The notes under the pieces are model-generated. The model searched no databases and was not told where the DNA came from. It saw only the letters and a list, made by a program, of their open reading frames with translations. The translations under genes were made by a program, and so were the position numbers. Source: Candidatus Heimdallarchaeum aukensis (GTDB taxonomy: Archaea; Asgardarchaeota; Heimdallarchaeia; Heimdallarchaeales; Heimdallarchaeaceae). From it: a stretch of DNA of 64,000 bases. Below, one piece after another: positions 1,174-32,521 of the stretch; the stretch's first letter is position 1, and each line of letters opens with the position of its first letter. The DNA lies in NCBI GenBank assembly GCA_021513695.1, contig CP084166.1, positions 1,600,001 to 1,664,000 of the forward strand. The letters run 5' to 3'.

Positions 1174-2628
1174 CTACTGGGGCTGCAACCAATGGCTGAG
1201 CCCTCGGCAAACAGTGAAATGAGTGAGACTGAATTTCTGACCAGTGAGGTAATCAGTAATGGTGTTACATCGAGGACGGAAAAGATATCCAAGGAACTTA
1301 CGAGCGATATTCATTCCCCTTGTTAGATCAGAATGAAAAGTGTAGTTACAGGAAGAACAATGAACTAACCCTCTAACGGGACGGGAAACTTTCCTCCCGC
1401 AACGAGCACAGTGAGAAGATGTCCCTCTTTCCTCTATTGTTAATATTCGGTGAGATTCAAAGCCTCGAAGTATAAGTGCCCGACGGAGAAGAGAGAGAAC
1501 AAGAGAAAAATTCCACTGATGAAGTTTTCTGCGAAACTTACGATTACTTTTTTCTTTTTCTTTTCCTTCTCGAACATGTTTGGGGTAACCTACAACAACG
1601 AAAAGGTCATACACTTGTGCATAACTCTCTATCGTCTGCACAACATCGCTTATAAATTGGTGAATATACGCGCGTTTAACGTTTCTATACCTCCGACGAA
1701 GAAGACCAAGAAAACGGTAAACTTGGTGCTTTTTACCTAACTGGTCGTTTAAAGCTGCTTTCCTCTGAAGACGGGAAAGTTTGAGTTTATATCTATGATT
1801 GATTCTATTCCACTGTTTAGTATACCAGAATTTTATCTCTTTTTTTGTTAACTTCTTTTTAGGAGTCAGTAACACTCCTGCAGCAGGAATGTTTATCCCT
1901 AGATCTATTCCCAGCACAGCTGGGGGAAGAGAAGAAGAATTATCTCCTTGACTTGTGAGATAAAAGGAAGAAGGAGGAAGAACTTTTAATTGGAAATACA
2001 CCCACCATTCACGTGTAGAACGTTTGTATCTTAGTTCTAGACTTTTCACCCTCCCTTTCTTTAACTCTTTCTGGTGAAAATCGCTCATCTCTAAAGGTAA
2101 CCACAACTTCTGATGATAAGGTGTCTTTCTCTTCCAGGTATCTAACGAGTCTCTTATTCCTACCCACCAACGAGTAAGTGTATTATTCTTCTCTTTTGGT
2201 AGATGGACAAGAATGAACCTTTTTCCATTAATTAATTGCCTTCTTGCTCTCTTTATTGGAGGACGAGTAGGACGGGGTCTATACCCTTGTTCATATAATT
2301 GTACAGCTATATCTCTACACTCTTGGAATTCATTGTGAGAACAATAGGGAAACATTTTCTTCAAGTCGTGAGGAACAGTCTTTCTCCTCTCTTCTTCTTT
2401 TACTCTTGAAGTAGTCAGTGTCAACTCGTCTAATTTTCCTCTATGTACTCTTATTTTCCCTTTTTTTGTTCTTATACTTATTTTTCTTCTGTTGTGGTGT
2501 ATAATTCTCACATATTTTTCTATTATTCTCGTGTCTCTCCCCGTTATTCTCCTTAATCTTTCCTTTTTTCTCGTCGTCAATACCTCATTCTTTATTCTCA
2601 CTTTTAATGTTTTGACGACGTCCTCCAT
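1174..2628 (-). CDS. tnpB: TnpB-like RuvC/zinc-finger nuclease (OrfB of IS605 family)
   Basis: A RuvC-I-like LGIDLGI motif is present. The C-terminal zinc finger reads HCARCG...CSSCNYTFHSDLTRGMNIA (CxxC...CxxC followed by the HSD RuvC-III block). The N-terminus is basic and the protein is 484 aa. Confidence 0.8.
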   Translation of the reverse strand: MEDVVKTLKVRIKNEVLTTRKKERLRRITGRDTRIIEKYVRIIHHNRRKISIRTKKGKIRVHRGKLDELTLTTSRVKEEERRKTVPHDLKKMFPYCSHNEFQECRDIAVQLYEQGYRPRPTRPPIKRARRQLINGKRFILVHLPKEKNNTLTRWWVGIRDSLDTWKRKTPYHQKLWLPLEMSDFHQKELKKGRVKSLELRYKRSTREWWVYFQLKVLPPSSFYLTSQGDNSSSLPPAVLGIDLGINIPAAGVLLTPKKKLTKKEIKFWYTKQWNRINHRYKLKLSRLQRKAALNDQLGKKHQVYRFLGLLRRRYRNVKRAYIHQFISDVVQTIESYAQVYDLFVVVGYPKHVREGKEKEKSNRKFRRKLHQWNFSLVLSLLRRALILRGFESHRILTIEERGTSSHCARCGRKVSRPVRGLVHCSSCNYTFHSDLTRGMNIARKFLGYLFRPRCNTITDYLTGQKFSLTHFTVCRGLSHWLQPQ

Positions 2629-28936: not shown

Positions 28937-30172
28937 TTAAGCTCCAAACTTTTCTACCAAGTGCAACTCATTTAATAACACTTTCATTAGATGTTTTCCT
29001 TTAATTCTTCCTAATCCACCATTATACGCATAACGTTCTCCAAAATACTTAACATTATCTTTTACGCAAGTTGGAGAATAAACAATTAGTGGAACTGGAT
29101 CAGCAGAGTGGTCTTTAAAGGAACAAGGAGTACTATGATCCCCAGAAATCATTACAACTAATTCTTCATCAAAGTTTTCAGGAAGAAATCTGTAAAGCTC
29201 TTTGTCAACTTTTTCAATGAATTCGACTTTTCCGTTATAATTTCCATCGTGCCCATAATTATCTGTTCCCTTAAAATGTAAAAATATGAAATCATGAGTT
29301 TTTAGAAGGTTAAAAGCAGTTTCAGCTTTTAAACGTACATCAGTGTTTGTTCCTCCTGTCATTCCATCTTTTTCAACTATTTCCATTCCGAGCATTCGAG
29401 CAACACCTTTGTAAAGACCTCCACCCGCTACACATGCTGTTTGCAACCCATATTCTTTTTCAAAGTTTGGCAATTTAGGGACTCTTCCAGCACCTCTGAT
29501 TAGCAAGTAATTTGCAGGTAATTTACCGGCTTCAATTCTTTGTTCATTTAGGGGGGAATGAGACAAAATTTCGTGAGATTTCCTTGCAAACTCAGATAAC
29601 ACCCTAGCAGTTTTTTGTGCTGATTCTGAATCATCTAAAGCTTTAAACGAATAAGGAGCTTTTCCTTCTACTTTAGGATCATTTGCTGAAACTTTATCTG
29701 ATAGATTTTCACCACGAAGAACTAGCGCAGCCCTATGTTCAGTACCTGCTTTCATGAGAAATTGAACATCTTCTATCTTCATTCCATTTAATTGCTTAAT
29801 GAACTCTTCTGTTCCTTCTTTTATACGCCCAGCACGACGATCAATAATAATTCCTTTTTCATCCATCGTGGCAAAATTCACTCTAAAAGCAATATCTCCC
29901 TCTTTTACAGTCAAACCAACACCTGAAGCTTCAAAAGGTCCGCGTCCTGTATAATACTGAAAAGGATCAACTCCAAATAGTGCAAGATGAGCAGTATCAC
30001 TTCCTGGCGTCTGTCCAGTTTCAATTACGTCCATGATTCCAGTTACACCCAGTTCAGCAAACTTATCCATATTTGGTGTTTTTGCATACTCTAAGGGAGT
30101 TTTACCGTCTAATTCAGGAATTGGACGATCACCTAATCCATCAAGGATAATAAATAATAATTTTCCAGTCAT
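28937..30172 (-). CDS. apgM: 2,3-bisphosphoglycerate-independent phosphoglycerate mutase, archaeal type
   Basis: [28 protein letters not shown] and the size (411 aa) are typical of ApgM. Confidence 0.85.
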
Positions 30173-30246
30173 TAATCAACTTGATTTTTGTACAAAAATA
30201 AATTTTGTGCAAGAATCTTGCTCTCGGAAAGCACTAAAAGAAACTA

Positions 30247-31545
30247 TCACGAAGGAGAGTTTAGATTAGGCGAACCGGTCATAGAGCCAGAGGAGAGAGT
30301 TGATAAACCCTCGACCACGGAAACTGGAAAAAAGAACTTTTTCCGCTCACGTGGGACAGGAAAATAAGAAAAAAAGGAAGAAGAGAGAGGGAGAGGAAGA
30401 GAACCAAAAAAGAGAAGAGAAAGGTTGCGAGAGGCGTTGCGGTCAGAGTGAACTTCAAAACCACAAGAAACGCAACGAAAAAGGTCACGAGTGACACGGG
30501 AGGAAGGAGAAACGTGACCGCAACGAGAGCAACGTTGACTGGTATAATGAGGGGGGACAGGAAGAACAGGAATATGCTTTTCTTCAGCAAGAGAGGTCAA
30601 GAAAGAGAGGAAAAAGCGATAAGACCAGCGGTTGAGAGAGCGACGAATACGTTCTCTTCCTCTAAAATTCTTTTTAGTCCATTTTTTTCTTATTTTACTA
30701 ATTTCTTCAATTACTATCGCAGAGCGTGTAACTACTGCTAAATCTACAATCTCGTGAGCTATTTGCTCACATCGGGTTTTGTTATAATTTTTTTCTTTAT
30801 TTTTCAATCTTTTTAACGCACGCCGTGCTTTTTCACTTCCTTTATCAGCATACGATTGTAGCTTTCTTCTTCTTTCATTAAACTTATGTTGTTTCCAGGC
30901 AAGATCTTTTCCGAGGTAACGTTCAATTAGAGTAAAAGAGGGATGATTAAGTGTTATTGCGGCAGCTATCTTTCTACCTACGTCTACTCCTATCGTTCCT
31001 TCTACTTGTTGAGGAGGAAAAAGGTTAAGTTCTTTACGTAAAATTATGTGCTCTACCCACTTTCTTTCCCGTTTAAAGACTTTACAACTATGCTCTTTCC
31101 ATCCTTCTCTGCGGTATGCTTCTACTCTTCTCCATCCTCCATCTAGTTTGATAGGTATAGCTATCCTTTCTTTCATCGGAGAAATAGCTAAAACAGGGTT
31201 CCCTCTCTCTGTTTCTTTTATTCCTCCACTCCTGGGAAAGTTGAACTCCAACGGTAAATTATCGAACTTTTTCACTTTCCTTGCCGCATAAACTCTTCTC
31301 TGTACCGCTTCTTGCACTTGACTGTGTAACTTCACATATTTGAACCTCTTATATACTAAATGATGGAACTCTTTTCCTGATTTCGCTTTTTCCTTGAACA
31401 CTATTATTTTATTTGCCATCTCTGTCGCTTTTTTCTGTGCTCTCTGCATGTATGCTCTTTTTCTTCTACTCGGGAGAATATTCACTTTTACTGTTTTTTC
31501 TTTCCACTTCCTTTTCTTTCCTTTTCTTCTCCCTTTCGTTTTCAT
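30247..31545 (-). CDS. tnpB: TnpB-like RuvC/zinc-finger nuclease
   Basis: RuvC-I reads IGVDVGRK and RuvC-II reads AIVIEEISK. The zinc finger reads CSRCGHVS...FRCVSCGFEVHSDRNASRNL. The K/R-rich N-terminus and low-complexity C-terminal tail probably reflect read-through of the low-complexity ends. Confidence 0.8.
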   Translation of the reverse strand: MKTKGRRKGKKRKWKEKTVKVNILPSRRKRAYMQRAQKKATEMANKIIVFKEKAKSGKEFHHLVYKRFKYVKLHSQVQEAVQRRVYAARKVKKFDNLPLEFNFPRSGGIKETERGNPVLAISPMKERIAIPIKLDGGWRRVEAYRREGWKEHSCKVFKRERKWVEHIILRKELNLFPPQQVEGTIGVDVGRKIAAAITLNHPSFTLIERYLGKDLAWKQHKFNERRRKLQSYADKGSEKARRALKRLKNKEKNYNKTRCEQIAHEIVDLAVVTRSAIVIEEISKIRKKWTKKNFRGRERIRRSLNRWSYRFFLSFLTSLAEEKHIPVLPVPPHYTSQRCSRCGHVSPSSRVTRDLFRCVSCGFEVHSDRNASRNLSLLFFGSLPLPLSSSFFSYFPVPRERKKFFFPVSVVEGLSTLSSGSMTGSPNLNSPS

Positions 31546-31640
31546 TCCTTCTTCTTACTTTTTTTTCCTATATAAACCCCTCTCCTCTCTCTTTCCTTTT
31601 CTTTTCTTTCCTCTTTTTTTACAAAAAACTTGTTCATGAG
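31546..31640. repeat. pyrimidine-rich low-complexity tract with a CCTATATAAA motif upstream of tnpB-2
   Basis: The sequence is ttttttcctatataaacccctctcctctctctttccttttcttttctttcctcttttttt. It spawns the spurious ORFs 31394-31649. Confidence 0.7.
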
Positions 31641-31789
31641 AAAAATTAGTGAATACAAATAAATGTTGCTTTAAATCAATAATTCTTTTTGAAACTACTT
31701 TATTTTTCTTATTAAGAATTTAAAAACGGAGAATCTGCTCTGTTTAATATTAAGCTGAAAAATTTTGCTTGGTGTTAAATCAGATTATT

Positions 31790-32521
31790 CTAAAAGAAAT
31801 AAAATGAAAGAACACAAATAGCTATCGAAACAGATGAGATAAAGAAATCTTTTATTCTAAATCTCCTACTGATGCTATATTTTCGTTTGATGGAGGGGTT
31901 ATATCCTTTTATAACTAAAGTTTCGGCAAATAGGATACTATTATTGATAGCTCTAATAAATACTGTTTTCAACATTTTTTTTAGGATGGAAAATTGATTT
32001 ATGACATTCCAACTAGGAGAAACAAATCCTTTTATTCTTCTTGAATGATTTAAGATGGATATTTCTTTTGTGAAAAGAGGTATTAATTGATAGAGACTTG
32101 TGAAAATAGTTGTCAACTTTTGTGGAATATACATTTTATTCATTACGATAGACAACTCATTTGTTGAAACAGTTTGAAAAAACCAAGTAATCAAACAAAA
32201 AGAAGTGATAAAACGATTAAAGAAAAGATAGAACAATAAAATTAATTCATCTAAGGTTTGTTTCTGGTGTAAGAAGAAAATTCCCAAAAACGAAAAGAAA
32301 AGAAAAGCTAGAGCTATTTTTAGTAGTGTTTTTAGTGGAAATTTAATACTAATTATTAGAATTAGTGATAAAACTATAAGATAAGAATGATACCATAAAG
32401 ATTCTGAAGTAAAAAGAATAACTAATTGAGTAATAAGAAAAACAATCTTCGTTCTCGGATCAATTGTTTGGGGTTCAATTAATCTATCAATTGTTTTGTC
32501 AGTATCTATCATTTTCTTCAC
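31790..32521 (-). CDS. ecfT: ECF transporter transmembrane (T) component
   Basis: This 243-aa polytopic protein lies immediately downstream of the duplicated ABC ATPase. Size and position fit EcfT/CbiQ. Confidence 0.55.
   Translation of the reverse strand: MKKMIDTDKTIDRLIEPQTIDPRTKIVFLITQLVILFTSESLWYHSYLIVLSLILIISIKFPLKTLLKIALAFLFFSFLGIFFLHQKQTLDELILLFYLFFNRFITSFCLITWFFQTVSTNELSIVMNKMYIPQKLTTIFTSLYQLIPLFTKEISILNHSRRIKGFVSPSWNVINQFSILKKMLKTVFIRAINNSILFAETLVIKGYNPSIKRKYSISRRFRIKDFFISSVSIAICVLSFYFF

Follow-up and report, generated by a model that had tools for sequence, protein, structure and literature searches.

What is the DNA that lies between apgM and its apparent native promoter in the Asgard archaeon Candidatus Heimdallarchaeum aukensis, and how could a central glycolytic gene tolerate an insertion 2 nt from its start codon? 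The locus falls within a 64,000-nt stretch of contig CP084166.1 (assembly GCA_021513695.1, positions 1,600,001 to 1,664,000 of the forward strand), here called the window and numbered from its first letter, which is part of a circularised Asgard chromosome of 3,081,793 bp (PMC8813620). A sequence-only reading of the window had placed a TnpB-only element at 30180-31640, with its 3' end within about 75 nt of the apgM start. We locate the element at 30175-31635, within 5 nt of that proposal at each end; its right end is closer to apgM than had been thought, only 2 nt from the ATG, the 74-nt interval being the one between the tnpB stop codon and apgM. It is indeed TnpB-only: tnpB is its sole gene, and 1,461 bp leave no space for a transposase gene. 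We regard it, with high confidence, as a non-autonomous insertion sequence (IS) of the IS200/IS605 type (IS1341-like) that carries a guide RNA and would have swapped the promoter of apgM.

30175-31635, minus strand: whole element, 1,461 bp, GAACAAG...CAAGTTGAT, without target-site duplication and without terminal inverted repeats.
31636-31639, minus strand: TCAT tetranucleotide in the left flank, the putative insertion target and putative target-adjacent motif (TAM).
31614-31628, minus strand: subterminal left-end palindrome TTTTTTGTAAAAAAA.
30247-31545, minus strand: tnpB, an uninterrupted open reading frame (ORF) of 432 aa.
28937-30172, minus strand: apgM, archaeal cofactor-independent phosphoglycerate mutase (Pfam Metalloenzyme and PhosphMutase, E ~1e-53 to 1e-55).
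31790-32521: CbiQ-type gene, upstream of tnpB.

Three lines of evidence fix the element ends: empty alleles of the apgM site, 96%-identical copies at another locus, and diverged relatives. An apgM protein 100% identical to that of the window occurs on six contigs in three distinct contexts (L081, L082, and L083), so that occupied and empty alleles encode the same enzyme. Contig L081 is the window sequence, the occupied allele; L082 and L083, from two Joint Genome Institute (JGI) metagenomes, carry the CbiQ gene, 157 nt, and then apgM, without TnpB, and their flanks are 99.1-99.9% identical to the window. With a slash marking each junction, the empty site reads ...CACTAATTTTTCTTAT/TAATGACTGG, its left side TTTTTCTTAT joining TAATGACTGG directly, and the occupied site reads ...CACTAATTTTTCTCAT/GAACAAG...CAAGTTGAT/TAATGACTGG. 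On these boundaries, precise excision would leave the junction TTTTTCTCAT/TAATGACTGG, and a circular form would be closed by CAAGTTGAT/GAACAAGTTTT.

The 96%-identical copies, whose proteins P0237 and P0238 are at least 90% identical to the window TnpB, belong to a sister lineage and lie on contigs L095-L098 between an FAD-oxidoreductase gene and a CutA gene; BLAST alignment of their DNA to the window runs from CTCAT to exactly 30175. This CutA locus is empty in H. aukensis itself, where the flanking protein accessions are consecutive, and it is empty on contigs L099 and L100, which retain TCAT. The empty junction, AACTCAT/ATCTACGAAC, becomes AACTCAT/element/AACTAAGAAC when occupied, so the same rule applies as at apgM: insertion after TCAT, with no duplication. 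This reciprocal presence and absence at two loci in very close genomes shows that the element has been recently mobile.

Diverged relatives extend the rule. An alignment-based scan recovered 13 at 55-62% protein identity from Heimdallarchaeota genomes, and a metagenome scan added 8 loci, mostly partial; a genome-collection scan with the single TnpB protein gave no match, in a collection that apparently lacks H. aukensis. Among the relatives, conservation starts at TCAT/GA-N5-CTTTTTTGTAC and stops at ...TTTTGTACAAAAATCAAGTYGAT, the right-hand limit being ...AAGTYGAT in 14 copies; outside these limits, the sequence around each copy is unrelated to that around the others. All 17 independent family copies, with flanks that otherwise share nothing, have TCAT immediately before the left end. 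The left-end palindrome is kept in every family copy; other members carry the consensus TTTTGTACAAAA at this position, and the 96% copies are identical to the window. At the other end stand a TTTTGTACAAAAA motif related to this palindrome and, 15 nt from the terminus, a hairpin GCACAAAA...TTTTGTAC; the two ends are asymmetric. The element inserts directly 3' of TCAT without target duplication.

Two other accounts of the junctions were considered and set aside. A one-base indel at the apgM junction was dropped in favor of a C/T difference within TCAT, given the clean post-TCAT insertion at the CutA locus. The idea that the family targets start codons, rebuilding an ATG from its terminal AT and a flanking G, met with an in-frame junction ATG at L009 and L010 only, and downstream genes are co-oriented with the element at 7 loci and convergent at 5, which yields no rule. 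At L009 (5335-6234), the same-strand ORF from the junction ATG encodes a 299-aa alpha/beta hydrolase (Abhydrolase_3, E = 3.5e-57) for which a downstream Met serves equally well as start; at L010 (5326-5727), the corresponding ORF has no Pfam match. In both, the junction ATG is a possible start codon, and the right-end hairpin holds TATAAAT ~32 nt upstream.

The left junction shows some peculiarities of its own. On L095-L098, the element opens with the same 7 nt (AACTAAG) as its right flank (L095 152-158 and 1615-1621), and weaker identities of this sort occur at L013 (GAGAG), L005 (GATT), and L002 (GAAT). The 7-nt identity is not a target duplication, since the window locus has none. In one occupied CutA haplotype (L098, ~900-920), a 10-nt deletion (AATTAACTCA) takes out the left-end TCAT, and an additional 24-nt insertion is present in this left flank in L095, making the left junction highly variable.

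The protein has the features of an intact RNA-guided nuclease.

30982-30984, minus strand: RuvC-I aspartate, D188.
30706-30708, minus strand: RuvC-II glutamate, E280.
30442-30444, minus strand: RuvC-III aspartate, D368.
30463-30531, minus strand: zinc-finger cysteines C339, C342, C358, and C361.
31569-31576, minus strand: TATA-like box of tnpB, TTTATATA, starting 31 nt before the tnpB ATG.

TnpB is 100% identical to the H. aukensis entry UJG39608.1, and this exact sequence is single-copy in the genome. It matches Pfam Cas12f1-like_TNB (PF07282) with E = 7.5e-19 and 68.1 bits (cut-off 26.3) and NCBIfam guided_TnpB (NF040570) with 129.8 bits, above the cut-off of 100; the NCBIfam Cas12f2 model scores 106 bits, below its cut-off of 450. 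All three catalytic residues and the four cysteines, which the earlier reading had recognized as a RuvC-I/II/III and zinc-finger core, are unchanged in 16 family members, and in a sequence profile the catalytic residues align with the motifs of solved Cas12f and TnpB chains. That profile favors Cas12f-type proteins (E = 1e-24 to 1e-28) over ISDra2 TnpB (only E = 1e-4). An AlphaFold2 model of moderate quality (mean predicted local distance difference test score, pLDDT, 70) gave as best Foldseek matches AsCas12f, OsCas12f, CnCas12f1, ISFba1 TnpB, ISDra2 TnpB, and Fanzor2 (E 4e-18 to 7e-7), with TM-scores that are low (~0.3) because domain orientations differ. A T-rich TATA-like motif is kept at the position of the tnpB box across the family.

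Over codons 1-400, the window tnpB differs from the 96% copies at 23-24 synonymous and 13-14 non-synonymous positions, giving a ratio of non-synonymous to synonymous rates (dN/dS) of 0.14-0.16; TnpB is under purifying selection. The last ~50 codons are another matter. They overlap the RNA scaffold described below, as befits what had been called a low-complexity C-terminal read-through, and this tail is not protein-constrained: some homologues end 20-25 codons earlier although the underlying DNA is still conserved, the tail is frame-shifted in P0237, and its pLDDT falls below 50. Base composition along the gene is skewed, with a purine content on the coding strand of 82% over the first 200 nt and only 26-30% over nt 1001-1400, a flip that accounts for the Lys/Arg-rich N-terminus, the Ser/Leu/Phe/Pro-rich tail, and spurious overlapping ORFs. 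Two such ORFs, 30279-30590 and 30300-30494, had been dismissed as antisense composition artefacts. Artefacts they are: they accumulate many amino-acid changes where the tnpB frame changes mostly synonymously, and a frameshift in L095 breaks both. The strand was misjudged for 30279-30590, which lies on the tnpB strand in another frame. Likewise, the description of the element as GC-rich holds relative to the window (38.7% versus 32.5%) and not in absolute terms.

Conservation of the DNA continues beyond the tnpB stop codon, and the region up to the right end has the properties of a structured RNA.

30175-30359, minus strand: structured RNA scaffold, six helices, ~185 nt, overlapping the tnpB 3' end and ending at the element right end.
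30190-30210, minus strand: terminal right-end hairpin GCACAAAA-TTTAT-TTTTGTAC, helix 6 of the consensus structure.
30155-30174, minus strand: predicted guide TAATGACTGGAAAATTATTA, the flank 3' of the right end, covering the apgM start codon and first six codons.

RNAalifold predicted 38 pairs from 14 sequences; with one doubtful long-range 3-pair helix left out, 35 pairs were counted, and 18 of these show compensatory changes on both sides. Pairing in the named structure holds for 92.8% of cells; sliding the partners by 1-3 columns lowers this to 38-54% and leaves double changes in only 2-8 pairs, and none of 500 shuffles reached the observed covariation score. The window sequence on its own folds alike (z = -4.1). 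A covariance model built on the final 154 consensus positions reaches 129 bits at 30175-30359, its sole significant match in the window, where it detects no orphan guide RNAs. Each family tnpB, the held-out L004, L088, and L095-L098 among them, has exactly one match at its 3' end, and the empty-site loci have none. No Rfam family matches the element RNA at E up to 10. We take this structured RNA to be the probable omegaRNA of TnpB. Weak matches to the model (E = 0.003-0.007) also follow TnpB genes of 31-33% identity in Atabeyarchaeia and other Promethearchaeati genomes (L016 5078-5255, L019 5063-5240, and L023 5077-5253), and the scaffold architecture may be older than the Heimdall family.

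In characterised TnpB systems, the guide is the flank past the right end. By this analogy, the 16-20 nt of flank beyond the right end (TAATGACTGGAAAATTATTA, 30174-30155) would serve as guide here; its first 16 nt match the window exactly at a single place, and in the empty alleles the 20 nt follow TTAT. A cycle can be proposed on the same footing. RNA would be transcribed past the right end, so that its last 16-20 nt (TAATGACTGGAAAATT...) become the guide, and TnpB with this RNA would cut TCAT followed by the guide, a sequence present only after excision. Repair of the cut from an occupied sister chromosome would then retain the element. Where the element is in place, these 20 nt are preceded by TGAT, one base from TCAT, and self-cutting would be avoided. 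Movement itself would most likely be the work of a Y1 transposase acting in trans.

Occupied and empty alleles of the apgM site differ in a way that bears on this cycle. Both empty haplotypes carry TTAT in place of the TCAT of the occupied allele, and this is the sole difference from -102 to +254 in L083 and from -102 to +2232 in L082; given the overall density of differences, the chance of one falling within these 4 nt is ~2-3.5%. Either direction of change is plausible: a TTAT allele would resist invasion, or else only a TAM-mutant joint would escape TnpB cutting after excision. The spacers of L084-L086, whose apgM proteins are 75-77% identical, are too diverged to polarise the change. Divergence between L082 and the window also changes abruptly at the insertion site, from 31 differences over 3.5 kb toward CbiQ to none over the first 2.2 kb toward apgM, and may mark a recombination breakpoint there or close by.

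How, then, is apgM expressed? The sequence-only reading had suggested that the insertion might affect apgM expression or bring a promoter with it, and both fit the arrangement of TATA-like boxes.

31656-31663, minus strand: displaced native apgM TATA TTTATTTG, 20 nt upstream of TCAT, facing the left end and tnpB.
30194-30202, minus strand: TATA-like TTTATTTTT in the loop and 3' arm of the right-end hairpin.

In the empty alleles, AACATTTATTTG (TTTATTTG) is followed by 22 nt and the apgM ATG. The orthologue L084 (77% protein identity), although it has another upstream gene, keeps the same box TTTATTTG at the same 22-nt spacing, and L085 and L086 have AGACTTATTTG (CTTATTTG) at that spacing. The empty alleles and all three orthologues, whose upstream genes differ, thus place (T/C)TTATTTG exactly 22 nt ahead of the ATG, a layout that looks like the archaeal TATA box of a leaderless mRNA. 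The insertion would accordingly fall between the TATA and the ATG of an apparently leaderless gene; the native box is now 1.46 kb further upstream and would face tnpB.

In the occupied allele, the right-end loop reads AAAATTTATTTTTG, with TTTATTTT, 22 nt, and then the apgM ATG. Its TTTAT starts exactly at -30, the native TATA register, and the 8-mer ATTTATTT within it is identical (8/8) to the native apgM box, a sequence whose frequency across the window is 1.6e-4 per position. The 15 nt before the apgM ATG of the occupied allele contain no Shine-Dalgarno-like GGAGG or GGTG. The register is also found elsewhere: TTTA[TA]N starts between -31 and -29 at 5 of the 24 ATG-start genes in the window, against 0.42 expected, and other window genes have a GGAGG- or GGTG-like motif near -8 instead. 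Many genes, among them those at 2948, 23914, 26731, and 48343, lack a Shine-Dalgarno motif but have a TATA-like box whose end lies ~22 nt upstream of the ATG; such genes are probably leaderless, judging from these motifs, and the distinction between the two patterns is useful for start-codon annotation in this genome.

The element right end therefore has the makings of a substitute: it appears to supply a replacement apgM promoter, and apgM would most likely be transcribed from the TATA-like ATTTATTTTT of the right-end hairpin in the native register (TTTAT at -30). The box belongs to the element: over its last 60 nt, the right end is the same in the 96% copies. We therefore reject the idea that the TTTATTTTT loop arose at this site as a rescue of apgM. 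The copies at the CutA locus sit 44 nt upstream of a gene that keeps its own TATA, downstream of the insertion. Most likely, only insertions that restore an in-register promoter survive at a site such as that of apgM.

A broader form of this proposal, to which we attach only tentative belief, is that the terminal hairpin of the scaffold doubles as a portable outward archaeal promoter, that the captured host promoter drives tnpB, and that TTAT marks immune alleles. The TATA-like loop lies ~28 nt from the element end, an element inserting after TCAT could fall between the TATA and ATG of a leaderless gene without silencing it, and empty TTAT alleles would be neither invaded nor cut by TnpB.

Several observations weigh against the account of a promoter-bearing IS200/IS605 element. 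A search of the element itself and of the surroundings of the 13 close relatives and 10 more distant ones turned up no tnpA or other transposase gene, and the assignment to IS200/IS605 (Y1) is consequently one of end architecture only; nor does the standard Y1 mechanism account for the 7-nt identity of left end and right flank on L095-L098. On the side of the promoter, the right-end motif is not adapted to apgM, and its register could be luck, as ~1.7% of positions would give TTTA[TA]N within 1 nt. A T run can act as an archaeal terminator signal, and the right-end loop has a five-T run that might do so. Finally, transcripts that start at the tnpB promoter or at the displaced native one could reach apgM by read-through.

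That last alternative, in which the TATA-like loop is an A/T-rich coincidence, is possible though we doubt it. The genes tnpB and apgM lie on the same strand 74 nt apart, an omegaRNA must in any case be transcribed beyond the right end, and the loop is intrinsic to the element, untuned to apgM, and matched by A/T-rich loops in all family members. Yet read-through would give apgM a 1.4-kb leader without GGAGG or GGTG within 15 nt of the ATG, where other leadered genes of the window have one, and native apgM and its orthologues have leaderless spacing; the exact register together with the full identity of ATTTATTT to the native box is improbable by chance, and the same five-T run would tend to halt read-through. 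The identity of the transposase is a separate matter. An IS607-type serine recombinase, acting on the central AT of TC-AT-GA, or an Asgard Cas1-like enzyme is an unlikely mover, if one with some points in its favor: the left junction is TCATGA, a palindrome with central AT, in most copies, 10 of 14 copies have TGAT and then a G at the right junction, AT is common to both junctions and the empty site, and the 7-nt identity on L095-L098 hints at homology-dependent site choice. Asgard TnpB groups have also been linked to Cas1 homologues; these Cas1H-Asgard groups have an adjacent Cas1-like gene, flanking repeats, and GTTCACTCA after a hypervariable region downstream of tnpB (PMC10691335). The strict 4-nt motif lies on the left flank only, however, and the lack of duplication, the asymmetric ends with subterminal palindromes, and the guide RNA at the right end are classic IS200/IS605, with no recombinase or Cas1 gene beside any copy examined. 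A Cas1-linked Asgard TnpB transposon in particular is ruled out, as tnpB is the sole gene and a GTTCACTCA-type motif is absent from 30000-31900.

Two further possibilities concern whether the element is mobile at all. That it is a domesticated TnpB which would regulate apgM through its guide RNA, like the nuclease-dead TldR repressors, might be suggested by a predicted guide that spans the apgM start codon and first codons and by the single exact copy of TnpB in the genome. We consider this very improbable. TldR regulators have lost RuvC residues and hold a fixed syntenic position, and neither is true here: the RuvC residues are all intact, strains whose apgM is 100% identical lack the insertion, and the orthologues L084-L086 have no TnpB upstream of apgM. 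The same element on L095-L098 has another flank and hence another guide, the "guide" of every copy being whatever adjoins its right end, and the guide match at apgM is preceded by TGAT and not by the family TCAT. More improbable still is a decaying fossil with an ORF open by chance and ends no longer functional. No transposase was found, the left-end palindrome has GTAA where the consensus has GTAC, and the right-end stem contains one mismatch; the 96% copies elsewhere carry the same deviant ends, however, which marks them as the working ends of the subfamily. Presence/absence polymorphism at two loci among close genomes, a dN/dS of ~0.15, and helices maintained by compensatory changes point the same way. 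Of the two outcomes that would have told against the sequence-only reading, a disrupted tnpB and a fossil without intact ends, neither was seen: the ORF is intact, as are the ends, which are common to copies elsewhere.

The IS200/IS605 reading also accords with characterised systems. TnpB-only elements of the IS1341 type, with ISDra2 of Deinococcus radiodurans and the Halobacterium sotRNA elements for comparison, likewise have one tnpB gene, and the present element shares with the IS200/IS605 group its asymmetric ends, subterminal palindromes, duplication-free insertion on the 3' side of a fixed 4-5-nt motif, structured RNA running over the tnpB 3' end to the right end with the flank as predicted guide, and intact RuvC D-E-D and zinc finger. 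It differs from ISDra2 in its putative motif (TCAT, where ISDra2 has TTGAT), in a protein that is closer to the Cas12f type by sequence profile, and in its Asgard host. To our knowledge, no autonomous transposase-bearing partner exists for it. Its RNA differs from that of the haloarchaeal elements, for the sotRNA families RF02656 and RF02657 (PMC12558985) are not among its five weak Rfam matches. The type V-F effectors AsCas12f, OsCas12f, and CnCas12f1 are the best profile and fold matches over the full length and resemble TnpB in size (~420-430 aa) and in their RuvC and zinc-finger core, but the element has no CRISPR array, cas1, or cas2 nearby, would take its guide from the transposon flank, and transposes as a unit.

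Bacterial insertion sequences with outward-facing promoters can activate or rescue a neighboring gene, and the apgM element resembles them in ending just upstream of a host gene with putative promoter elements in register. Unlike theirs, its candidate promoter lies within the terminal hairpin of a guide-RNA scaffold, in the form of an archaeal TATA-like box, and it would replace, rather than supplement, the promoter of an apparently leaderless host gene.

The window contains another TnpB-like ORF (484 aa, 1174-2628, minus strand), the first copy in the sequence-only reading, which had credited both with the same organisation while recognizing that their sequences differ. The likeness proved slight: the two share 26% identity over the C-terminal third, the 3' region of the first copy has no match to the RNA model of the element, and the RuvC-II glutamate is missing from the pairwise alignment, where V/G stands at its position. 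With 74.7 bits against the NCBIfam TnpB model, below the cut-off of 100, this first copy may be nuclease-dead.

The apgM element is of an ordinary kind, IS200/IS605-type and TnpB-only, but the case is unusually well documented and the guide-RNA family is new. In the literature library searched, no paper names Heimdallarchaeum and TnpB together, and the terms TnpB, IS200, and IS605 are not used in the H. aukensis genome paper (PMC8813620). Exact ends, two empty/occupied pairs, a putative TAM of TCAT, a covariation-supported RNA, and a compact 432-aa Cas12f-like protein amount to a complete natural specification for nuclease testing. They also provide evidence of recent movement of a TnpB element in Heimdallarchaeia, the archaeal group closest to eukaryotes. 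A promoter within the right end would account for the persistence of the element so close, at 2 nt, to the start of a central glycolytic gene, and the plausible promoter swap at apgM, an essential gene, offers a concrete case of insertion tolerance in organisms with leaderless genes.

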